This document shows, one piece after another, positions 1,446 through 11,462 of a stretch of 64,000 nucleotides of DNA; positions within the stretch are counted from its first letter, which is position 1; each line of letters starts with the position of its first letter. The stretch lies in assembly GCA_965205945.1 (NCBI GenBank), contig CBDBIB010000003.1, positions 672,394-736,393 of the forward strand, in the 5' to 3' direction. The notes under the pieces were generated by a model. The model saw only the letters and a program-made list of their open reading frames with translations. It searched no databases and was not told the origin of the DNA. The DNA is from Bdellovibrionales bacterium. Lineage in GTDB: Bacteria > Bdellovibrionota > Bdellovibrionia > Bdellovibrionales > UBA1609. The translations under genes were made by a program, and so were the position numbers.

Positions 1446-1928
1446 CTATTTTTTCCAACTAAAACTGTTTAAAGAATTTCCACAAGCAATGAATTCATTA
1501 TTAACTTTGTTTGACTGGCAGGTTAGAGTAACAAGTTTATTATTTTTTATACTTATGTACTGCTTAAAGATTTTTTTAGAGCTTTTGTGCACAGCCTTAA
1601 TCAAGTAGCCGTAGGTGATTTTGTTAAGTTTAAGAGGAGTTTTTTGAGTAATTTTAAAACCGTAAGAATTATAGTCGATTAACCATGTGTGTACATTTTT
1701 CTTTAAAGATTTCTCTTTAAGATAATTAAACTCACGAATTGTGAAAGTTGATTTTTTTGATGGTGATTCAAAAGCCTGTTGAAGAGTTGAGATGTCTTTT
1801 AGTGCTAATTTACGCCATTTTACTTCATTAGTAATTAAGTAATCTTTAAATTCAATGGAAGCAAGACTTTGTATGCTTAGGGAAAAGATTAAAAAACTTA
1901 GGATTTTCATTAGTTTAGATGTTTTCAT
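1446..1928 (-). CDS. Hypothetical secreted protein
   Basis: 160-aa ORF with a signal-peptide-like N-terminus; overlaps the mutY stop. Confidence 0.6.
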   Translation of the reverse strand: MKTSKLMKILSFLIFSLSIQSLASIEFKDYLITNEVKWRKLALKDISTLQQAFESPSKKSTFTIREFNYLKEKSLKKNVHTWLIDYNSYGFKITQKTPLKLNKITYGYLIKAVHKSSKKIFKQYISIKNNKLVTLTCQSNKVNNEFIACGNSLNSFSWKK

Positions 1929-2934
1929 AAAAGTTAGGGTGTTGCCAAATCTTTTCGATAAGAGATGATGGTGTGGCTCTTTTAAGCTTTATTCTTTCTG
2001 TTTTTTGAGGCCTTGGTCCGGGTTTTGGGTTGTTTATAAACTTAATAAAGAGGTTATGGTTGGTGATGGTGTGCATGAAATCATATTTTTTAGGCTTTTT
2101 CTTAAGTTTTTTAAAAGAGCCTAGGGGGAGTATATTTTTTTTTAAAATAGGTGAGCTGATATCTTTAGCATTTATTGCGTAAAGAGCCTTAGAACCTAAA
2201 CAGTTTTTGTAAACACTATATTGCCAAAATTCTTTTTTTTTTCTTGGCCTTGGGAGTGGAAGTTTGTTTTGAAGTCTTTTTTTAAATGTTTCACAAACTT
2301 TAGTTAAAGGACATAGTGAGCACATTACTTTTTTAGGGGTGCAAATAGTTGAGCCTAAATCCATAAGAGCTGGGTTTATAATTTTAGGAGGAGCGATTTG
2401 GCAAAGAGTGTCAGAAAAATTTTGAGTAGAGTTAAAAAAGCTTTTTTTCCACCAATCTAGTTTTTGCCCCAAAAGTCTGTTGTAAACTCGAAGAACATTT
2501 CCATCTACAACGCCAACTTTTTCATTAAAACAAATACTGCTAATGGCCCTAGAAGTGTATGGTCCTATGCCTGGAAGCGTGAGAAGTTTTTCAGCTGTAT
2601 TAGGAAGTTTGCCGTTAAAATTAGAGTCTATAATTTGTGCAGCTTTAAGAATATTTCTAGCTCTAGAATAGTAGCCAAGACCCGCCCAGTACTCGTTAAC
2701 TTCTTCTTGTTTAGCCTTTGCTAGATCACTTACAGAGGGCCATTTTTCTGTAAACCGTATAAAATAGGGTCTAACCGCTTGTGTAGTGGTTTGTTGTAGC
2801 ATGATCTCTGAAATCCAAACTAGATAAGGGTTTTGTCTAGGTTTTCTCCAAGGCAAGTTTCTCTTATTAGATTTAAACCATTTTATAAGGTGCTTTGAAA
2901 TTTCTATGGAGTTTAGGCTTTGATTTGAGGTCAT
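1915..2934 (-). CDS. mutY: A/G-specific adenine glycosylase MutY
   Basis: PYLVWISEIMLQQT, WAGLGYYSRARN, LPGIGPYT, VDGNV and 4Fe-4S motif CTPKKVMCSLCPLTKVC; likely start ATG 2934. Confidence 0.93.
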   Translation of the reverse strand: MTSNQSLNSIEISKHLIKWFKSNKRNLPWRKPRQNPYLVWISEIMLQQTTTQAVRPYFIRFTEKWPSVSDLAKAKQEEVNEYWAGLGYYSRARNILKAAQIIDSNFNGKLPNTAEKLLTLPGIGPYTSRAISSICFNEKVGVVDGNVLRVYNRLLGQKLDWWKKSFFNSTQNFSDTLCQIAPPKIINPALMDLGSTICTPKKVMCSLCPLTKVCETFKKRLQNKLPLPRPRKKKEFWQYSVYKNCLGSKALYAINAKDISSPILKKNILPLGSFKKLKKKPKKYDFMHTITNHNLFIKFINNPKPGPRPQKTERIKLKRATPSSLIEKIWQHPNFYENI

Positions 2935-2979
2935 AATGGACCTTATTTTGACTCTTTTTTGTCTATGTGTCACATCTTA

Positions 2980-3960
2980 ATGATGTCAAATGTACACTTT
3001 TTACCTATTCATGGTCGCCAGATGCCTCGTTTTGGTGGAATTAAAACCTTTTTTAGACTTCCTCATATTAAGAAAACAGATGAGCTTTTTAAAAACTTAG
3101 ATATTGCAATTTTTGGGGTTCCTTTTGATGGGGGGGTCTCTTATAGGCCTGGGGCTAGGTTTGCCCCATCTAAAATTAGAGAGGTTTCTTCATTAGGTAG
3201 AGGTTATCATTTTTCAAGAGATCTTACGGTTTTTGATAGTTTAAATGTAGCAGACACAGGGGACTGCTTAGTGACTCCTATGTCTGTTGAAAAAACATAT
3301 GAACTTATTAAAGCGTATACGGGAGAGCTTTTAGAAAAAAATAAAAAATTTATTTCAGTGGGCGGTGACCATTCAACAACGCTTGCTCATCTTAGGGCAT
3401 TAAAGGAAAAAAATGGAAAAGCAGTATCATTGCTTCATTTTGATGCCCATTTAGATACCTATGCTTCAGCATGGGGTTGTGAATATCACCATGGCGCTTT
3501 TGTAAGGCATGCTGTAAATGAGGGCTTGATTGATTCAAAAACCTCTATTCAAATTGGTATTAGAGGGTCTTTAGCTGGAAAATCTGACTTAGATTTTAAT
3601 GTAGAGCATGGCCTTTCATATATTACCGTAGACAACATTCGTTTAAAAACTTTAAGTCAAGTTATGAGTAAGATACATGGGCATTTAAAACAAGAGTCTG
3701 TATTTTTAAGCTTTGATATTGATTGCCTTGATCCAAGTTGTGCGCCAGGAACTGGAACTCCTGTTCATGGAGGTCTTACAGTGTATGAGGTTCAAAAGAT
3801 TTTTCAGGAGCTTAGAATTAAAAATTTAGTTGGAGCAGATATTGTAGAGGTTTGTCCTCCTTACGACACAGCAGAGATTACAGCTTTGGCAGCGGTAGAT
3901 GTTATGTTTGAAATTTTGTGCTTGTATAAAATTGAGATGAACAATGGTCATAAAATTTAA
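2980..3960 (+). CDS. speB: Ureohydrolase (agmatinase/guanidino-acid hydrolase family)
   Basis: MPRFGG..TFFRLP, GVPFD, RPGARFAP, GGDHS, DAHLD, SFDIDCLDP..APGTGTP; substrate uncertain. Confidence 0.85.
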   Translation: MMSNVHFLPIHGRQMPRFGGIKTFFRLPHIKKTDELFKNLDIAIFGVPFDGGVSYRPGARFAPSKIREVSSLGRGYHFSRDLTVFDSLNVADTGDCLVTPMSVEKTYELIKAYTGELLEKNKKFISVGGDHSTTLAHLRALKEKNGKAVSLLHFDAHLDTYASAWGCEYHHGAFVRHAVNEGLIDSKTSIQIGIRGSLAGKSDLDFNVEHGLSYITVDNIRLKTLSQVMSKIHGHLKQESVFLSFDIDCLDPSCAPGTGTPVHGGLTVYEVQKIFQELRIKNLVGADIVEVCPPYDTAEITALAAVDVMFEILCLYKIEMNNGHKI

Positions 3961-5395
3961 TAGAGTAAAAGAAAAGTTTCATCATGAAAATTGGCCGACC
4001 CCAGTTTTTTATGCTCCGGTATTTTTATACTATCTTTATAATTCACTAAAATTTAGAAAATTAAATTATTTTACCACTGCAAATCCAGGTCTAAAGGCAG
4101 GTGGAATGTGTGGTTTTTCAAAATTTGAATCATTTAAACTTCTTCCCTTAAAAGTTATCCCTACTACGATTTTATTAAATAATAAGCTTTATAGTGAGCA
4201 GCAGATTAAAGAGATGTTGAGTGAAAAAGGGTTAGAGTTTCCACTGGTGGTGAAGCCAGATCAAGGGGAGCGTGGGTTTTTGGTGTCTAAAGTAGATAAT
4301 CTAAGAGAGCTAGTAGAAACAATAAGTAATAAGACTTTAAAAATAAATTTTTTAATTCAAGAGTTTATTGACGAGCCTTTAGAGTTGGGTGTTTTTTTAA
4401 TAAGGCAAAATAAAGAGTGGAAGGTGTCTTCTATTACATCAAAGGATTTTTTAAGTGTTTTAGGTAATGGGGTAAAAACCATTAAACAGCTTATTGTAGA
4501 AGATAAGAGAGGTCGAAAATATTTTAATCCTTCTAAAATGAAGCTTGATCTTAAAAGAGTGCCTAAGCATAATGAAAGAGTTTTGCTTGAACCTATTGGT
4601 AATCATTGTAGAGGAACTAAGTTTGTAAATGAATGTGGTAGCATCACAAAAGAAACACATAAGGTTTTTAATAATTTTTTAAAAGATGTTAAGGGCATTA
4701 ATTATTGTAGATTGGATTTAAGGTCTTCATCTTGGCAAGCTCTTTATAAAGGTAGGTTTAAAATATTAGAAATTAATGGTGTTTCAGCAGAGCCTGGGCA
4801 TATTTATGATTCATCTGTATCTTTAATAAGAGCTTATAAGGATTTATTCTTTCATTGGAATGAAATGGCTTGTGTGGCTAAAGAGCAAGTCTTAAAAGGC
4901 GAAAAGGCAGAGAAGTTTTTTGATACCATGGGGTTTATAAGAACTCATATGAAACGAAAAAAAGAACTTCAAAGAGCTAAAGATTTAGTTATTGATGTTA
5001 TAGGCTGTAAAGGGTTAAATCTTTCTTTGGATCCGGAGGTGATCTTAAATAAATTTTCACAAGAAGAGTTGACGTTAAATCATAAATGTGTAGAAACCAC
5101 TTATGGTTATGAGAGAGCAGTGCTTTTTAAAAACAAAGATGTTGAGATTGTATTTTGCCATTGGCGTCCAGGAGATAAAAGTTCTGTACATCTACATCCA
5201 GGTGTAAACTGTTGGTTTAAATGCCTAAAAGGTGATATTGTTGAATTAAGATCAATGGGAAAAGAACAAAATTTTCTTACTAAAGGAGCTATAGGAAATA
5301 TTGACGACACAAAAGGCGCTCACCAAATGCTTAACATGTCTAATGAGTGCGCTTACTCAGTTCATATATATCAAACTAAAAAAGAGAATTCATGA
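3944..5395 (+). CDS. ATP-grasp carboxylate-amine ligase fused to a C-terminal cysteine dioxygenase (cupin) domain
   Basis: ATP-grasp motifs FPLVVKPD.G.RG, FLIQEFI..P.ELGV, RLDL, ILEING..AEP; C-terminal CDO motifs YER..W....S.VHLH....C, GAH and SVHIY. Confidence 0.8.
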   Translation: MVIKFNRVKEKFHHENWPTPVFYAPVFLYYLYNSLKFRKLNYFTTANPGLKAGGMCGFSKFESFKLLPLKVIPTTILLNNKLYSEQQIKEMLSEKGLEFPLVVKPDQGERGFLVSKVDNLRELVETISNKTLKINFLIQEFIDEPLELGVFLIRQNKEWKVSSITSKDFLSVLGNGVKTIKQLIVEDKRGRKYFNPSKMKLDLKRVPKHNERVLLEPIGNHCRGTKFVNECGSITKETHKVFNNFLKDVKGINYCRLDLRSSSWQALYKGRFKILEINGVSAEPGHIYDSSVSLIRAYKDLFFHWNEMACVAKEQVLKGEKAEKFFDTMGFIRTHMKRKKELQRAKDLVIDVIGCKGLNLSLDPEVILNKFSQEELTLNHKCVETTYGYERAVLFKNKDVEIVFCHWRPGDKSSVHLHPGVNCWFKCLKGDIVELRSMGKEQNFLTKGAIGNIDDTKGAHQMLNMSNECAYSVHIYQTKKENS

Positions 5396-6783
5396 AAGAT
5401 CTGCTTTTTCATATTCTGGAAAAAGCATTGCTTTTAAAAGAAAAACCTTTAGTAAGCTTAAAATCTCCCAAAAAACTTACGGAGTCTTTTGATCTAAGTT
5501 TAAAAGATGAAAAATATTTAGGCGATGCTAAAAATCTAATAGATTCTGTTTTTAAAAACTCTGTAAATACTCAAAACCCAAGATTCTTAAATCAGCTCTA
5601 CGGAGGGTCAACTCAAGAATCTTGGATAGGTGAATTTTTAGTTTCCATTTTAAATACTTCTATGGCTACATATGAAATAGCGCCGCTAGCAACTCTTATG
5701 GAAAAAGAATTGATTAAAAGTGTTAATAAAAAAGTGGGTTTTCCTAAAGTTGAAGGACTCATGGTTCCAGGTGGGAGTTATGCTAACATGCTCGGTCTTC
5801 AGTGTGCTAGATACACTCATAATAGAAAAATAAAAGAACAGGGGCTGTATGATTCTCCAAAATACAAGGTTTTTATTTCAAAGGAAGCTCATTATTCTTT
5901 TGAAAAAGCCTTAGGTCTTATGGGGCTAGGAACAAACTCTTTAGTTGAGGTGAAAATAAGCCTAGATAAGAAGATGCTTAGTTTAGATTTAGAGTTAAAA
6001 ATTAAGAAGTGTTTAGCTGAGGGTGGAGTGCCTCTTTGTGTTGTTTCAACTGCAGGAACAACTGTTTGGGGTTCATTTGATCCAATTAAAGAAATTGATG
6101 AAATTTGTAAGAAATTTCAAGTTTGGCACCATGTTGATGCTGCCTGGGGGGGGCTGGGTCTTTGGTCACATAGGGGAAAAGACCTTTTTAAAGGTCTTAA
6201 GCAAGTAGACTCTATTACTATTGATTTTCATAAACTTTTTGCATCTACGTTAACAAAGGGACTTTTTTTAACATCACATAAGAACGTGCTTAAAGGGGCT
6301 AATTCTGGTGGAGGAACAAAATATATCTTTCACAGTGCAGATGAAGAAGAAATTTCATATGATATAGGCACTTACGCAATTCAGTGTGGTCGAAAGGTAG
6401 ACTCTTTACCTGTATGGTTTCAGTGGAAAATGGGTGGAACTGATCAGTTTAAAAATAAAGCCTCCCACTTATATAAACTGGTAAACTGGACCACAGAATA
6501 TCTTTTAAAAGAAGCTAAAGAGTATAAATTGCAACTAAGTCCTGAATACATGAATATATGCTTTCAAATGCTTCCTGGAGACAACAAACTAGATGTAGGA
6601 GAGTTTAATAAAAGAGCGAGAGCTCTTTTATTAAAGCGTGGAAACTTTATGGTGAATTTTTCTAGCACAGAAGAAGATGGTGTTTTTTTTAGATTAGTAC
6701 TAAGTCACTGGGGACTTACACAAAATATTCTTGAAGAGTTTTTTATTGAGTTAAAAAATATTAAAGAAGAGCTTAAATTCTAG
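5392..6783 (+). CDS. Group II PLP-dependent decarboxylase, cysteine sulfinic acid decarboxylase/GAD-like
   Basis: PRFLNQL, NTSMATYEIAP, PGGS.AN, HYS, TAGTTV.G.FD, HVDAAWGG, DS...DFHK (PLP lysine), QCGRK.D; ATGA overlap with the upstream gene. Confidence 0.88.
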   Translation: MKDLLFHILEKALLLKEKPLVSLKSPKKLTESFDLSLKDEKYLGDAKNLIDSVFKNSVNTQNPRFLNQLYGGSTQESWIGEFLVSILNTSMATYEIAPLATLMEKELIKSVNKKVGFPKVEGLMVPGGSYANMLGLQCARYTHNRKIKEQGLYDSPKYKVFISKEAHYSFEKALGLMGLGTNSLVEVKISLDKKMLSLDLELKIKKCLAEGGVPLCVVSTAGTTVWGSFDPIKEIDEICKKFQVWHHVDAAWGGLGLWSHRGKDLFKGLKQVDSITIDFHKLFASTLTKGLFLTSHKNVLKGANSGGGTKYIFHSADEEEISYDIGTYAIQCGRKVDSLPVWFQWKMGGTDQFKNKASHLYKLVNWTTEYLLKEAKEYKLQLSPEYMNICFQMLPGDNKLDVGEFNKRARALLLKRGNFMVNFSSTEEDGVFFRLVLSHWGLTQNILEEFFIELKNIKEELKF

Positions 6784-6804
6784 TTCTTATGAGGAGAGTT
6801 TAAA

Positions 6805-7785
6805 TTGGAATTTTTTCCTGAATTAGATCAAATTGAAAAAGTAACAAAAAGGTTAAAACGTCAAGGAGTACCCTTTGAACGTAACACATTGGCTCAAATA
6901 GAGCATAAAGGTAAAAAATATCCAATACAGGGTTTTGTTATAGGATCAAAAAATCCAGAGGCCCCAACACTTGGTTTATATGGTAGTGTTCATGGTTTAG
7001 AGAAAATTGGAACACATGTTATTTTAAATTACTTAAACTCCCTTGCATTTAGATACTCTTTAAATTTATACATAAGAAAAAAATTTGAATCTTTTAGAAT
7101 TGTATCTATACCTATGGTGAACCCATATGGGGTAAAGCACAATAAAAGAGGCAATATGAATGGGGTTGATCTTATGAGAAACTCCCCAGTAAAAGCAATA
7201 GGCAAAACCTTACCATTTCTTTCAGGTCACCGAATATCTCCTAGAATTTGGTGGTACAGAGGTGAAGAGAATAAAATGGAGCAGGAGTCGTTGGCCCTCA
7301 TCAATTTTGTAAAAGAACAGATGTTTTCTTCAGAATTTTCTATGGCTCTAGATCTACATTCTGGTTTTGGATTAAGGGACAGGTTGTGGTATCCATACTC
7401 AAAAGCAGTAGGGATATTCCCCTTAGAGCATGAAGCTAGAAATCTAAAAAGAACAATGAAACTTATTAACCCCTTTCATATTTATAAGATTGAACCTCAA
7501 TCAGACTCTTATTTAATTCATGGTGATTTGTGGGATCATATGTTTGATTTACATTTTTTAGATTCTAAATACAAAGGGTTTTTTTTACCGTGGACTTTGG
7601 AGATGGGAAGTTGGAATTGGATTAAGAAAAATCCATTTCAAATTTTTTCACAAAAAGGCTGGTTTTATCCAATGAAACTACATAGGGTGAATCGAGTGAT
7701 GAGAAGGCATTGGTGGCTTTTAGACTTTTATACAAACTTTATTGCTAATGGTGGGATAGATTTAAGCTCTAGTAATTTTAAATAG
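6805..7785 (+). CDS. M14-family zinc carboxypeptidase-like protein
   Basis: HGLE zinc motif, NP.G, NGVDLMRN, DLHSG and LEMG; TTG start with GAGGAG RBS. Confidence 0.8.
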   Translation: MEFFPELDQIEKVTKRLKRQGVPFERNTLAQIEHKGKKYPIQGFVIGSKNPEAPTLGLYGSVHGLEKIGTHVILNYLNSLAFRYSLNLYIRKKFESFRIVSIPMVNPYGVKHNKRGNMNGVDLMRNSPVKAIGKTLPFLSGHRISPRIWWYRGEENKMEQESLALINFVKEQMFSSEFSMALDLHSGFGLRDRLWYPYSKAVGIFPLEHEARNLKRTMKLINPFHIYKIEPQSDSYLIHGDLWDHMFDLHFLDSKYKGFFLPWTLEMGSWNWIKKNPFQIFSQKGWFYPMKLHRVNRVMRRHWWLLDFYTNFIANGGIDLSSSNFK

Positions 7786-7939
7786 CAGAACAATTTTTTA
7801 ATAGAGTTTTTTTAAAAGTAATGAGAATAAGAATTTGTCTTAATAGATTATTTCATAATGTAGGTAAAAATTATTAAGAGAGTAAGAAATAAGCCTAAAT
7901 AGGCTTTTGTTGAACAAAACCTTGGAGGTTAAGATTAAT

Positions 7940-8773
7940 ATGGAAAAAGTAAAACTTTTACAAGGTGTGACAGCATATGAAGACTTAAATAAAGAGTTTT
8001 TAAAGGTAGTTGTTTTTCTCCATGGTGGAACTATTCCAAGCTGGTGTTATGATCATGTGTTTAAAAAACTTCAGGGCAAAAACTTTAGACTTATAAGGTA
8101 TGATATGTATGGCAGAGGGGAGTCAGATAGTCCAAATCTTAAATATAATAGAATTACATATTTACAACAGTTAGAAAACTTTTTAGAAAATTTAAAAATT
8201 AATAAGGTGCATGCTATTGTTGGATGTTCTTTTGGGGCTTCTTTAGGAACTTTGTTTAGCTTAAAAAATCCCCGCGCTGTTAAGAAAATTATTTATATTT
8301 CTCCAGCTATAAATTGGGTTAATAATATTAAATTGGCAAGAATATTTTTTATTCCTATTCTGGGTAGAATTTTGTTTTATACAGTAGGTAAAAAACTCAT
8401 TAGAAAAAGAGCATTAGGTTTTATGAAGTTTTTAAAAGATGAGGAATTTTTAGTTTATCAAACACTAATAGAAAAACAATTTCATATAAATAATCATGGT
8501 TTTTGGGATTCTCTTTATAAGCAACTTACAACAGATGCGTTAAAGAGTTATCTTGCTGAGTACAAAACTTTAGGGGGTTTGAACCAACATGATGTGAGCC
8601 TTATTTGGGGTATTGGTGATAAGGAAGTAAGTGCGGATGATATAAAAAATATTAAGCAGTATTTTCAAAATATTAATATAAAAAATATAAAGGGAGCTGG
8701 TCATGGTCTTATGGCAGAATTTCCTGAACTGGTGGCAGCGTTTGTTGTAGAGGCTTTAAAGGAGGCGCCTTAA
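7940..8773 (+). CDS. Alpha/beta-fold hydrolase
   Basis: FLHG, YDMYGRGES, nucleophile elbow GCSFG, WG..D and AGH; GGAGG upstream of ATG 7940. Confidence 0.85.
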   Translation: MEKVKLLQGVTAYEDLNKEFLKVVVFLHGGTIPSWCYDHVFKKLQGKNFRLIRYDMYGRGESDSPNLKYNRITYLQQLENFLENLKINKVHAIVGCSFGASLGTLFSLKNPRAVKKIIYISPAINWVNNIKLARIFFIPILGRILFYTVGKKLIRKRALGFMKFLKDEEFLVYQTLIEKQFHINNHGFWDSLYKQLTTDALKSYLAEYKTLGGLNQHDVSLIWGIGDKEVSADDIKNIKQYFQNINIKNIKGAGHGLMAEFPELVAAFVVEALKEAP

Positions 8774-8840: not shown

Positions 8841-11462
8841 TTAAGATAAAAGACTTATAACTGTTGAGTTTAGGTTTTTAATCGATTCAACGGTTCCTTG
8901 TGCAAAATCAGGTTTTCCGCCACCTTTACCACCGAGCTTTATGGTGAGCTCTTTTAAAAAAATCCCAGCACTAAAATCTTTAAAATCTTTTGTTTTAGAT
9001 ACAAGAATAGGAAAGCCTTTGTTTGTTTTTTCGGCTGTAAAAATACAGACTCCAGGTTTTTTCATCTGGCCCCTTGCTTTGTCTGCAGCAATTTTTAAAT
9101 CATTTCTACTAAAATTTTTAAGATGTGAAATACAAATCTTAATCTCTCCAAATTTAGAGTCTATACTTTCAAACTGAGAGGGGGCAGCTAAGGCTTTAGA
9201 TTTAATTTTTTTATTTAAAGTTTTAATTTCTTCAGTTAATTTAGATACTTGTGTTATAAGATCTTTACTTGAGGAGTTTTTATTAAAACCTAAATAAAGT
9301 GCAACCTCTTCAAAATCAGAAGTTTTTTGATTTAGGTATGAAAAGGCTTTAGCCCCTGTAACAGCTTCGATTCTTCTAATTCCTGAGCTTATTCCAGACT
9401 CAGTTTTAATTTTAAAGCTACCTATGTCTTGAGTATTAGAAACATGTGTTCCTCCACAAAGCTCTTTTGAGAGGTCACCCATGGTAAGAACTCTTACTTT
9501 AGAACTATACTTTTCCCCAAAAAGTGCTTGAGCTCCAGCTTTTTTAGCCTCATCAATATTCATAAGTTCTGTTTGAACAGGGTTAGCTTTTTTAATTTCT
9601 TTATTAACTAGTCGCTCAATTTCTTTTAAGTTATCTTTAGAAATAGGGCCCTTGTGGGAGAAATCAAATCTTAGCTTATTCTCATTAACTAGTGACCCTG
9701 CTTGCTGCACGTTATCTCCACAAACTTTAACTAAGGCAGCATGTAGTAGATGAGTTGCAGAGTGGTTTTGTTGGGTTTGATATCTTAGAGTTTCATCAAC
9801 TAAAAGAGAAATTTTATCACCATTTTTAAAGCTTCCATTAATTATTTTACAAAGGTGGACAAAAAGATGATCAAGCTTTTTAACATCTAAAACCTTAGCA
9901 ATATTTTTTTCACAAGTTATTCTCCCTCTGTCTCCAACTTGCCCACCGCCCTCAGCATAAAAAGGGGTAGTATTAGAAATTAAATAAAAATCTTTAAAGC
10001 TACTAGTGTTGATTTCGCCTTCACAGGTTGTATGCATTTGAAGAATGGTTCCTTTATCAGAGGTGTTTTTATAACCTGTAAACTTAGTAGGCTTTAAATT
10101 CTTTAAAGAGATTTTAATACTTTTAGGAAAATCAAATAAGAGGGTTTCTTTTTTACTTATAGATTTTGCTTGATTTTTTGCAGAGAGTAACTTTTCTTTA
10201 AAGCCTTTTTCATCAAGATTATAGCCTTTCTCAGTTAAAATGATTTTTGTTAAATCAATAGGAAATCCAAAAGTATCGTAGAGTTTAAAAGCGCTTTCTG
10301 CAGATAAAGTTTTTAACCCTTTTAAATTTAAGAGTTCTTTTTCTAAAAGCCTTTCCCCTTTATTAAGAGTATTTAAGAATTTGGTTTCTTCTTCAGTTAC
10401 GGTTTTTAAAATTATTTGAGAACGCTCGTTTAGTTCAGGGTAGAATTTACTCATTTGTGCAATCACTTTTTCACAAAGTAGGGGTAAGATTGGGGTGTTA
10501 GAAAGTTTATTATTAAAGCGGACTGCGCGTCTAAGAATACGTCTAAGAACATAACCACGGCCTTCATTGTTTGGTAAAATACCGTCAGCAATTAAAAAAG
10601 AAACAGCTCTTGCATGATCAGCTAGGACTCTTAAAGCAGCTCTACTAGAAGATCTTTTTGGATCATCTAAATCATAAGGAGTTTGTAAGAGTTTTGAAGC
10701 TCTTTGAATAATAGGTAGAAATAAATCTGTTTCATAGTTACTGGTTTTATTTTGTATCACCATAGAAATACGCTCTAAACCCATTCCTGTATCAATTGAT
10801 GGTTTTGGTAAGAGTTTTTGTCCGTCTTCATTTTCATGAAATTGCATAAAAACAAGATTCCAGATTTCAATAAAACGATCACCGCTTCCACCAACTACGT
10901 CCTTAAGTCTAGATCCCATTTTAGGTCCAAAGTCATAAAAGATCTCAGAACATGGTCCACAGGGGCCAACATTTCCCATTCGCCAGAAATTGTCTTCCTC
11001 TCCAAAAGTAGAATAATGGTTTTTTGATATTCCTATTTTTTTAAGCCATATTTTTTCAGTTTCATGGTCAGTTTTAAAGCCTGTGATGTAGAGTTTTTTA
11101 GGGTCAAGGCAAAGCTCTTTTGTTAAAAAATTCCATGCATAATCAATAGCGCTTTCTTTAAAATAATCTCCAAAAGAAAAATTTCCAAGCATTTCAAAAA
11201 AAGTGTGATGCCTGGCTGTAAATCCCACATTGTCTAAGTCATTGTGCTTACCGCCAGCACGAATACATTTTTGACAAGTCGTTGCACGTGGAGTTCTTGG
11301 AGTTTGAGTGCCAAGGAAAATAGGTTTAAATTGATTCATTCCAGCATTGCTAAACATAATTGTTGGATCATTGTGAGGAATTAAAGAAGAGGAAGGAAGA
11401 ATGAGATGGTCATTTTTCCTAAAGTAATTTAAAAAAGAAGACCTAATGTCTGAACTTTTCAT
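8841..11462 (-). CDS. alaS: Alanine--tRNA ligase
   Basis: NAGMNQFK, RHHTFFEMLGNFSFGDYFK, DTGMGLER, HSATHLL, ELCGGTH and GGGKPDFAQG. Confidence 0.98.
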   Translation of the reverse strand: MKSSDIRSSFLNYFRKNDHLILPSSSLIPHNDPTIMFSNAGMNQFKPIFLGTQTPRTPRATTCQKCIRAGGKHNDLDNVGFTARHHTFFEMLGNFSFGDYFKESAIDYAWNFLTKELCLDPKKLYITGFKTDHETEKIWLKKIGISKNHYSTFGEEDNFWRMGNVGPCGPCSEIFYDFGPKMGSRLKDVVGGSGDRFIEIWNLVFMQFHENEDGQKLLPKPSIDTGMGLERISMVIQNKTSNYETDLFLPIIQRASKLLQTPYDLDDPKRSSSRAALRVLADHARAVSFLIADGILPNNEGRGYVLRRILRRAVRFNNKLSNTPILPLLCEKVIAQMSKFYPELNERSQIILKTVTEEETKFLNTLNKGERLLEKELLNLKGLKTLSAESAFKLYDTFGFPIDLTKIILTEKGYNLDEKGFKEKLLSAKNQAKSISKKETLLFDFPKSIKISLKNLKPTKFTGYKNTSDKGTILQMHTTCEGEINTSSFKDFYLISNTTPFYAEGGGQVGDRGRITCEKNIAKVLDVKKLDHLFVHLCKIINGSFKNGDKISLLVDETLRYQTQQNHSATHLLHAALVKVCGDNVQQAGSLVNENKLRFDFSHKGPISKDNLKEIERLVNKEIKKANPVQTELMNIDEAKKAGAQALFGEKYSSKVRVLTMGDLSKELCGGTHVSNTQDIGSFKIKTESGISSGIRRIEAVTGAKAFSYLNQKTSDFEEVALYLGFNKNSSSKDLITQVSKLTEEIKTLNKKIKSKALAAPSQFESIDSKFGEIKICISHLKNFSRNDLKIAADKARGQMKKPGVCIFTAEKTNKGFPILVSKTKDFKDFSAGIFLKELTIKLGGKGGGKPDFAQGTVESIKNLNSTVISLLS

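Follow-up and report, generated by a model that had tools for sequence, protein, structure and literature searches.

Gene organization of the locus

The window analysed here is a 64,000-nucleotide stretch from a Bdellovibrionales bacterium (G000:C3:672394-736393, in a host genome of 1.87 Mb that is 97% complete). It carries four adjacent genes on the forward strand. The subject of this report is the set of three activities encoded by the middle two genes, namely an ATP-grasp domain, a cysteine dioxygenase (CDO) fused to it and a decarboxylase related to cysteine sulfinate decarboxylase (CSAD), hereafter the trio. The first gene encodes an agmatinase (SpeB-type ureohydrolase; 2980..3960 with an alternative start at 2959; Pfam Arginase and TIGR01230). 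The second gene (3944-5395) encodes the 483-aa fusion (PF08443 and PF05995), in which residues 1-345 (3944..4978) form the ATP-grasp domain and residues 346-483 (4979..5395) form a linker and a CDO type I cupin domain (PF05995). The third is a group II pyridoxal phosphate (PLP) decarboxylase of the CSAD/GADL1/GAD family (5392..6783; PF00282), and the fourth an M14 zinc carboxypeptidase (6805..7785; PF00246).

The ATG of the fusion gene at 3944 gives a 17-nt overlap with the agmatinase gene (stop codon 3958-3960), the fusion and decarboxylase genes share an ATGA at 5392-5395, and a gap of 21 nt separates the decarboxylase from the M14 gene, which has a GGAG ribosome-binding site 6 bases 5' of its TTG at 6805. 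A preliminary description of this DNA, made from the sequence alone, had listed the same four genes with these overlaps and this gap; direct reading of the junctions bore out the layout, and Pfam/NCBIfam and structure searches confirmed the four identities. No convincing terminator was detected among the four genes by a terminator scan and by reading of the junctions. A palindromic, terminator-like hairpin followed by TTTTG (7891..7906, consensus match only) stands 3' of the M14 gene and is a possible end of the transcription unit. The promoter scan gave 14 promoter-like sites versus 22.4 in shuffled sequences, i.e. fewer than in the shuffles. Another hairpin, at 5402-5427, was discarded as a regulatory signal; it sits within the decarboxylase gene.

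Conservation of the trio in Bdellovibrionota

The ATP-grasp, CDO and decarboxylase genes were found together in all 13 Bdellovibrionota loci (the window, L001-L006, L127, L133-L136 and L154), six with the fused and seven with a split form of ATP-grasp and CDO; in L135, two opposite-strand genes separate the ATP-grasp gene from the CDO gene. Because the trio recurs at 12 loci outside the window, in at least three families of the phylum, its arrangement is, as judged from gene order, not due to chance. The named relatives of the window locus are metagenome-assembled genomes of Bdellovibrionales.

The survey combined several samples, covering 160 ATP-grasp loci and about 30 targeted ones. Among the best 80 loci of a set with one genome per species, six had CDO and decarboxylase (L001-L006) and 74 had ATP-grasp alone; among the best 80 loci from metagenomes, one had the trio (L154). 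A Pfam search detected CDO in 52 of 401 Bdellovibrionota genomes, and 20 of the 51 foreign CDO loci were fetched for neighbourhood reading. These added the trio in G177, of the same genus as the window, and in G023, G195, G311 and G350 of f20, another family than that of the window, while the locus of G237 proved to be the same contig as L003. G398 is a partial case, in which CDO has a VTT-ATP-grasp gene in its vicinity at the end of a contig. In family f16, none of the four solitary CDOs inspected has a partner. In a quick tree, the CDO-linked ATP-grasp domains formed one clade (18 rows, SH-aLRT 90), within which the fused ATP-grasp/CDO forms were monophyletic (100).

Some neighbours of these genes are recorded here in their own right. 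Directly 3' of the decarboxylase in L004 (11035-11703), L005 (10966-11595) and L006 (10997-11620) lies a gene for a homolog of glutathione peroxidase that is extended at its N-terminus by about 70 aa; photolyase, alpha/beta hydrolase and MFS transporter genes come after it. A different CDO fusion exists in the same order of bacteria, with an N-terminal CDO_I domain and a C-terminal SAM methyltransferase in proteins of 660-669 aa (L131:6564-8546 in G276 and L132:7776-9785 in G372); the next gene in L132 belongs to the Asp/Glu racemase family.

The cysteine dioxygenase domain

The CDO_I domain (PF05995) was detected at residues 388-477 of the fusion with 29.8 bits (cut-off 23). Its residues were assigned by alignment to the human and rat CDO1 structures: Y389 and R391 correspond to Y58 and R60 of CDO1, H416, H418 and H460 to H86, H88 and H140, C423 to C93, and S472, H474 and Y476 to S153, H155 and Y157. 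The roles of these positions in the CDO active site are textbook knowledge. The three-His iron site of the cupin fold is thus complete, and the residues of the Cys93-Tyr157 pair and of the Ser-His-Tyr triad are all there. Arg60, which contacts the substrate carboxylate, marks the cysteine-type enzymes, its place being taken by Gln in 3-mercaptopropionate dioxygenases.

Among 20 fused homologs, seven of the nine active-site positions are invariant and Y389 is retained in at least 90%, while S472 is not among the conserved columns. The eight split CDO copies all have the His ligands and the equivalents of His155 and Tyr157, with Ser or Thr at the Ser153 position. The equivalent of Cys93 is substituted in two of the eight (Ser in L134, Gly in L136). 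That of Arg60 is aligned in five, and in the other three (L004-L006) visual inspection showed a YxR displaced by one residue from the MAFFT column. By its active-site residues the window CDO is predicted to be a cysteine-specific enzyme of animal type that oxidizes L-cysteine, in agreement with the preliminary description; the full cysteine-specific active site is retained in the C-terminal domain of the fusion.

The decarboxylase and a probable supply of beta-alanine

The decarboxylase matches Pyridoxal_deC (PF00282) with an E-value of 1.9e-64 (218 bits), and the genome has no second PF00282 gene. Among solved structures human CSAD (2jis) comes first with E 3e-81, ahead of GAD67 (3.7e-79), GAD65, mouse CSAD and GADL1 (2.2e-76), and the matches to diaminobutyrate decarboxylases are far weaker (1e-38 to 1e-47). 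The PLP-lysine motif DFHKL is located at residue 278. Among 14 aligned decarboxylases (those of the 13 trio loci and of L139), the H-K of this motif is present in all, as DFHKL in nine and as D[TNA]HK[ML] in five.

Three positions of the substrate pocket were compared. They read F/S/Y in human CSAD, S/N/F in GAD67, Y/S/A (Y70, S90 and A92) in the window-type decarboxylases of nine trio loci, and F/T/A in the f20-type of four trio loci and L139. Position 1 is therefore aromatic, Tyr or Phe, in 14 of 14. According to the excerpted text of PMC7367687, this position is Ser in GAD, Tyr in GADL1 and Phe in CSAD, the smaller pocket accommodating aspartate or cysteine sulfinate; the same excerpt states that purified GADL1 converts cysteine sulfinate to hypotaurine and that GADL1 supplies beta-alanine for carnosine synthase, which is an ATP-grasp enzyme. 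From homology and pocket residues, the window decarboxylase probably acts on cysteine sulfinate and/or aspartate.

The aspartate decarboxylase PanD (PF02261) was not found in the 97% complete genome of the window, in which PanC is present. Since PanD is missing and PanC present, the window decarboxylase probably also yields beta-alanine from aspartate for pantothenate. In the window's genus a single enzyme probably handles aspartate as well as cysteine sulfinate, a dual capacity that GADL1-type enzymes can have. In the phylum sample, PanD is present in 267 of 401 genomes and missing from 134, while decarboxylase homologs (E<=1e-40) are present in 50 of 401. Eleven of the 12 full-trio genomes (completeness known for seven of them) lack PanD, the sole exception being G350. 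By cross-reading of the tables, PanD is missing in f20 from 22/25 genomes with the decarboxylase versus 14/75 without it, and in f1 from 6/6 versus 4/21; the related genomes behind these counts are not independent, though many genera are covered. PanD and the CSAD-like decarboxylase are thus nearly mutually exclusive within f1 and f20, and this suggests a PLP-dependent replacement of PanD in part of the phylum. Judged from gene content, the CSAD-like family is commonly the stand-in for PanD in Bdellovibrionota. Three of the f20 trio genomes (G023, G195 and G311) carry two decarboxylase copies, one in the trio and the other elsewhere, and the second copy fits a specialization of the CDO-linked decarboxylase.

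The ATP-grasp domain and its family

The RimK-type ATP-grasp domain (PF08443) was detected at residues 60-145 of the fusion with 26.4 bits (cut-off 21), and the AlphaFold2 model of the domain has a pLDDT of 95.2 and a pTM of 0.92. In Foldseek the model comes closest to amino-acid and peptide ligases, its top hits being ATP-grasp modules from cyanophycin synthetase, GshF and D-Ala-D-Ala ligase (E 2.5e-11 to 1e-8, TM 0.35-0.52), at only 12-19% identity. The search gave 482 matches in the PDB at E<=0.001, and every one of those listed is an ATP-grasp enzyme. K104, E147, R256, D258, E276 and N278 are invariant across 105 ATP-grasp sequences, and we infer that K104, D258, E276 and N278 bind ATP and Mg. 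The cut-off of no characterized ATP-grasp family (RimK, LysX, CphA, Ddl, GshB) was reached, the best score being 30.1 bits for TIGR00768 against a cut-off of 143.4; the NCBIfam cut-offs for such families range from 143 to 850 bits.

The family comprises 2165 representatives at E<=1e-3 (clusters at 50% identity). The fusion with CDO is rare: of the best 120 proteins listed, 21 align over 97% or more of the query, and the remaining ones, of about 287-370 aa, match the ATP-grasp part only; where a source name is given, it is mostly one of Bacteroidota. A protein atlas search gave only automatic names (hypothetical, ATP-grasp, putative Ddl), with some clusters mostly of Pseudomonadota. Other fusions in the family combine ATP-grasp with TANGO2, LysE, VTT or alpha/beta-hydrolase-VTT domains. 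A homolog of the YHS protein is present at 59 of 160 ATP-grasp loci, and the conserved neighbours at the Bacteroidota loci (n=80) are DinB-like (46), LysE (42), YceI (25), TANGO2 (24) and DoxX (20). The links to YHS, DoxX, VTT, LysE and TANGO2 point to a membrane or exported product of the ATP-grasp family.

The lone ATP-grasp loci (L007-L080 and L155-L233) show a repeated set of neighbours, DinB-like, LysE exporter, TANGO2/NRDE, DoxX, YHS, YceI and DM13; titles of the named records among L007-L080 are mostly of Bacteroidota. The N-terminal helix of the window fusion (residues 19-37) was considered as a membrane anchor and rejected. The maximal 19-aa Kyte-Doolittle mean of the fusion is 0.99, with no segment near the usual transmembrane threshold, the region is retained in VTT-fused paralogs, and residues 11-40 are modelled confidently (block means 91-97).

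Lipid- and membrane-linked relatives of the trio

At several loci the decarboxylase adjoins genes of lipid or membrane function. In L133 and L134 (f20), DoxX/YHS, DedA/VTT and PlsC-type acyltransferase genes lie directly 3' of the decarboxylase; of the OlsB/OlsA-type pair, PlsC alone occurs there. In L135 (f20), CDO, an OlsB-like GNAT (PF13444), the decarboxylase and PlsC follow one another on the same strand with gaps of 16, 9 and -4 nt. L248 (G121) has YHS, decarboxylase and VTT-ATP-grasp genes on one strand, with two open reading frames (ORFs) without Pfam match between them. The genome of the window carries, elsewhere, an OlsB-like gene on C2 (L152:6326-7141) and, on C1 (L153:5115-5891), an ortholog (39% identity) of the operon-linked PlsC. 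These links to OlsB/OlsA-type enzymes point to an acyloxyacyl aminolipid, as far as gene neighbourhoods tell. According to excerpts of a review (PMC12971839), Gluconobacter cerinus transfers taurine to the ornithine-lipid carboxyl group in an ATP-dependent reaction whose gene is unknown. The ATP-grasp family is a reasonable candidate class for this taurine-ornithine-lipid ligase.

Two further clusters were observed. L249:4878-12658 (G012) has eight genes, a VTT-ATP-grasp gene being divergent from a tight run in the order YHS, DoxX, a 546-aa group II decarboxylase, OlsB-like GNAT, PlsC, alpha/beta hydrolase and an arginase-family protein; G012 also has PanD and, elsewhere, a lone weak CDO. The second cluster of the window's own genome (L151:7543-15458, identical to G000:C1:415542-423457) lies entirely on one strand and encodes, in order, a 534-aa VTT/DedA-ATP-grasp paralog, a YHS protein, a 649-aa Rieske-TPP fusion, a 350-aa ferric-reductase-TM-Rieske fusion, a 253-aa ORF and a 537-aa Rieske-glutamate-synthase-like FMN protein. 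Its three Rieske fusions are unusual.

The agmatinase, the M14 peptidase and the flanking genes

The first gene product scores as a true agmatinase (Pfam Arginase E 9.3e-87; TIGR01230 204.3 bits against a cut-off of 174.3; PRK02190 299.7 bits versus 302) with GGDHS, DAHLD and DIDCLDP motifs in its translation. The genome has three ureohydrolases, of which the window gene alone passes the agmatinase cut-off, and also encodes a SpeA-like arginine decarboxylase of 640 aa. The agmatinase lies upstream of the trio in six of 13 loci, all of the fused type and of one clade. No ortholog was found in the split-type genomes G003-G005 (best 33-34% identity; the four f20 genomes were outside this search). 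From its family scores and distribution, the agmatinase is most likely an ordinary SpeB of polyamine housekeeping that heads the transcription unit by chance.

The M14 protein matches PF00246 (E 2.7e-15, 57.2 bits, cut-off 21.6) and DUF2817 (E 1.4e-7), and its HGLE, DLHSG and TLEMG segments are what we take to be the M14 zinc site (HxxE...H) and the catalytic Glu. It is directly the next gene in four of 13 trio loci. In L004-L006 it lies 5-6 kb off, behind opposite-strand genes, and converges on an arginase-like/alaS pair. It is missing at the locus in G177 and G237: the whole G177 genome (98% complete) gave no match to the window query, and G237 gave a weak partial match, while in G023 and G311 the gene is on other contigs. 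A syntenic backbone, mutY...M14...alaS, seems to have been retained, and the M14 gene looks like a variable neighbour, only doubtfully connected with the trio. The preliminary description had made both the ureohydrolase and the peptidase integral parts that supply or recycle the amine. Neither role was upheld: the agmatinase, present in 6/13 loci of one clade, scores as a true SpeB in a genome with a SpeA-like enzyme, and the M14 gene is adjacent in 4/13 loci, gave no match in G177 and is on separate contigs in G023 and G311. As judged from this distribution, the conserved functional unit is the trio and not the quartet.

The region is AT-rich (GC 0.27-0.37). Upstream of the agmatinase lies a mutY-like gene (1915-2973, reverse strand), and downstream of mutY an ORF of 160 aa (1446-1928, reverse strand) whose N-terminus resembles a signal peptide and which has no match in Pfam; it is retained alongside mutY in L001, L003, L127 and L154. 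Past the M14 gene are an alpha/beta hydrolase (7907-8773, forward strand) and alaS (8841-11462, reverse strand). The hydrolase was rejected as a part of the system, since it is only 24% identical over 105 residues to the alpha/beta hydrolases of L249, L137 and L134, whose mutual identity is 40-42%. At L094 (1453-3656; G003), and also at L091 and L095, a gene for a 325-aa arginase-like ureohydrolase shares the strand of alaS, whose end it overlaps, and converges on M14. It is orthologous (31-37% identity) to the decarboxylase-adjacent ureohydrolases of L242 and L249, not to the window agmatinase.

Discussion

As the trio is tightly and repeatedly linked (13/13 loci), a unit that would form hypotaurine and ligate it is the most economical reading. 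We propose tentatively, with slightly less than even confidence, a route from cysteine through cysteine sulfinate and hypotaurine to an ATP-driven amide with a carboxylate. The C-terminal CDO would oxidize free L-cysteine to cysteine sulfinate, as predicted from its complete cysteine-type active site. The decarboxylase would then strip the alpha-carboxyl group to give hypotaurine, on the evidence of homology, pocket residues and constant adjacency to CDO. The ATP-grasp domain may use ATP to form an acyl-phosphate on a carboxylate and couple to it the amine of hypotaurine (or taurine), a step suggested by the fusion, by co-inheritance and by the general chemistry of the fold; the acceptor could be a soluble amino-acid-like acid or the carboxyl group of an acyloxyacyl aminolipid. 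Gene structure, domain identities, active-site conservation, co-inheritance and PanD complementarity were observed directly, while every substrate and product named here is deduced from them.

Several observations weigh against this proposal. About 150 of the 160 ATP-grasp loci have no CDO or decarboxylase nearby, the named ones being mostly of Bacteroidota; hypotaurine as such is not required by the ligase. A fusion of the first and third steps of a pathway is unusual. The CSAD-like character given to the decarboxylase in the preliminary description holds for its best relative and for the CSAD/GADL1-like aromatic residue at pocket position 1, but position 3 is Ala, where CSAD has Tyr and GAD has Phe, so that the motif fits neither enzyme; the meaning of positions 2 and 3 is that reportedly given by Agnello et al. 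in 2013. From the PanD complementarity, aspartate is possibly the main substrate of the decarboxylase, and G116 (57% identity) and G037 have close orthologs of it with no CDO or ATP-grasp gene. A preference for aspartate, named in the preliminary description as an outcome that would speak against a (hypo)taurine operon, is thus partly borne out by a PanC-positive genome without PanD and by the phylum-wide complementarity. What stands of that operon is the linkage of the trio, the CDO site and the aromatic pocket residue of CSAD/GADL1 type; what does not stand are the ureohydrolase and M14 roles, and aspartate is likely a substrate too.

Of the other explanations, one takes the decarboxylase to be chiefly an aspartate 1-decarboxylase for CoA in place of PanD, with the ATP-grasp/CDO protein acting otherwise on cysteine sulfinate or beta-alanine, for example in making a carnosine-like beta-alanyl amide. 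It would account for the single PF00282 gene in a nearly complete genome (97%) with PanC and no detected PanD, for the lack of PanD in 11/12 full-trio genomes as compared with 134/401 in the phylum sample, for the complementarity within both f1 and f20, for the decarboxylases without CDO in G116 and G037, and for the pocket Tyr, which is the GADL1 state, GADL1 feeding beta-alanine to carnosine synthase (PMC7367687, excerpt). However, CDO adjoins in 13/13 loci and is fused to ATP-grasp in six, the f20 trio genomes carry a separate second decarboxylase so that the CDO-linked copy is an extra one, and G350 has both PanD and the trio. Moreover, GADL1-type enzymes take both substrates, which makes the two roles compatible, and we consider this explanation unlikely. 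A much less probable one, to which we give little credence, regards the ATP-grasp protein as a cysteine-using ligase for a low-molecular-weight thiol, with CDO and decarboxylase disposing of surplus cysteine. The glutathione peroxidase gene 3' of the decarboxylase in L004-L006, the DinB-family and DoxX neighbours at Bacteroidota loci and GshF among the top fold matches are in its favour, yet a fusion of two enzymes competing for one substrate would be unexpected, the trio loci share no conserved partner related to thiols, and the argument is one of inference throughout.

The acceptor could also be a lipid, the ATP-grasp enzyme joining (hypo)taurine to the carboxyl group of an ornithine-type acyloxyacyl aminolipid to give a cerilipin-like head group. 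The tight run with OlsB-like GNAT and PlsC in L135, the DoxX/YHS, VTT and PlsC genes of L133 and L134, the decarboxylase/OlsB-like/PlsC run facing VTT-ATP-grasp in L249, the paralogs fused to DedA/VTT membrane domains, the OlsB-like gene and PlsC ortholog (39% identity) of the window's genome and the ATP-dependent step without a known gene in G. cerinus (PMC12971839, excerpts) all agree with this. Against these stand the absence of an acyltransferase near the window locus and in 9/13 trio loci, the lack of any hydrophobic segment of the fusion near the transmembrane threshold (maximum 0.99), and the LysE-exporter and TANGO2 fusions, which suit a soluble exported product equally, and the lipid acceptor appears rather unlikely. 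An extended form of it, in which the ATP-grasp family generally adds an amine to an aminolipid carboxyl, Bdellovibrionota recruited the CDO/CSAD module to make a (hypo)taurine-capped, cerilipin-like lipid from cysteine, and DedA/VTT paralogs couple synthesis to flipping as in MprF, is speculative and would be quite unlikely. Finally, all four genes of the window might form one pathway, with agmatinase and M14 supplying or recycling the amine or the conjugate. The operon-like spacing in the window, L001, L002 and L154 agrees with this, as do the recurrent ureohydrolases of another subfamily, which accompany the decarboxylase in L242 and L249 and M14 in L094, and pairs of amide-forming and amide-cleaving enzymes are a common theme. 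But the agmatinase is confined to one clade (6/13 loci) with no ortholog found in G003-G005 and scores as SpeB in a genome that has SpeA, the M14 gene was not found in G177, gave a weak partial match in G237 and is unlinked in G023/G311, and mutY...M14...alaS is syntenic regardless of gene function; a four-gene pathway is accordingly improbable.

The proposed hypotaurine-forming and ligating unit can be compared with known systems. An animal-type pathway of CDO and CSAD for taurine reportedly occurs in a few bacteria (Agnello et al., 2013, ACS Chem Biol, as cited in PMC8153620 and PMC12019592), and to our knowledge bacterial synthesis of taurine or hypotaurine is scarcely documented, with no fate of the product beyond the free compound. 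As in the animal pathway, a cysteine-type CDO adjoins a CSAD/GAD-family decarboxylase, and the residues of the Cys-Tyr pair typical of animal CDO are present. Unlike in that pathway, an ATP-grasp ligase is fused to the CDO or encoded next to it, Ala takes the place of Tyr at pocket position 3, the decarboxylase probably doubles as a source of beta-alanine, and no hypotaurine-oxidizing step was identified. The arrangement resembles GADL1 and carnosine synthase (as excerpted from PMC7367687) in that a CSAD-like decarboxylase with a pocket Tyr would feed an amine to an amide-forming ATP-grasp enzyme, but the ATP-grasp family is unrelated in detail, being nearest in fold to cyanophycin synthetase, GshF and Ddl, and CDO is present here. 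With the G domain of cyanophycin synthetase, GshF and D-Ala-D-Ala ligase, the window domain shares the ATP-grasp fold and its ATP/Mg-binding core, whereas identity (12-19%) and TM score (0.35-0.52) are low and residues 1-70 are helical and distinct.

Among lipids, cerilipin formation in G. cerinus (PMC12971839, in the excerpts at hand) is similar in the ATP-dependent amide of taurine on a carboxylate, and genes of OlsB/OlsA type adjoin in L135 and L249. It differs in that no acyltransferase adjoins the window trio and that the window amine would be hypotaurine unless oxidized; the cerilipin ligase has no sequence to compare. The roseobacter lipid SAL, with a cysteinolic acid head group (PMC11631085; 10.1101/2021.02.05.429882), is likewise an acyl aminolipid with an aminosulfonate head and a PlsC-like O-acyltransferase, but its head group is synthesized differently, and the excerpted parts of these two sources report no ATP-grasp, CDO or group II decarboxylase for it. 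The papers searched gave no description of the ATP-grasp/CDO fusion or of the trio, nor of a taurine lipid in Bdellovibrio.

The joining of a CDO/decarboxylase module to an amide ligase would imply an undescribed sulfinate or sulfonate conjugate in predatory bacteria. The complementarity of PanD and the CSAD-like decarboxylase offers a testable answer to the source of beta-alanine in many Bdellovibrionota. If the lipid acceptor holds, it would reveal which class of genes moves taurine onto ornithine lipid; the excerpted 2026 review (PMC12971839) lists that gene as unknown. The ATP-grasp family has no characterized member, and the assignment of a single one would annotate thousands of genes.

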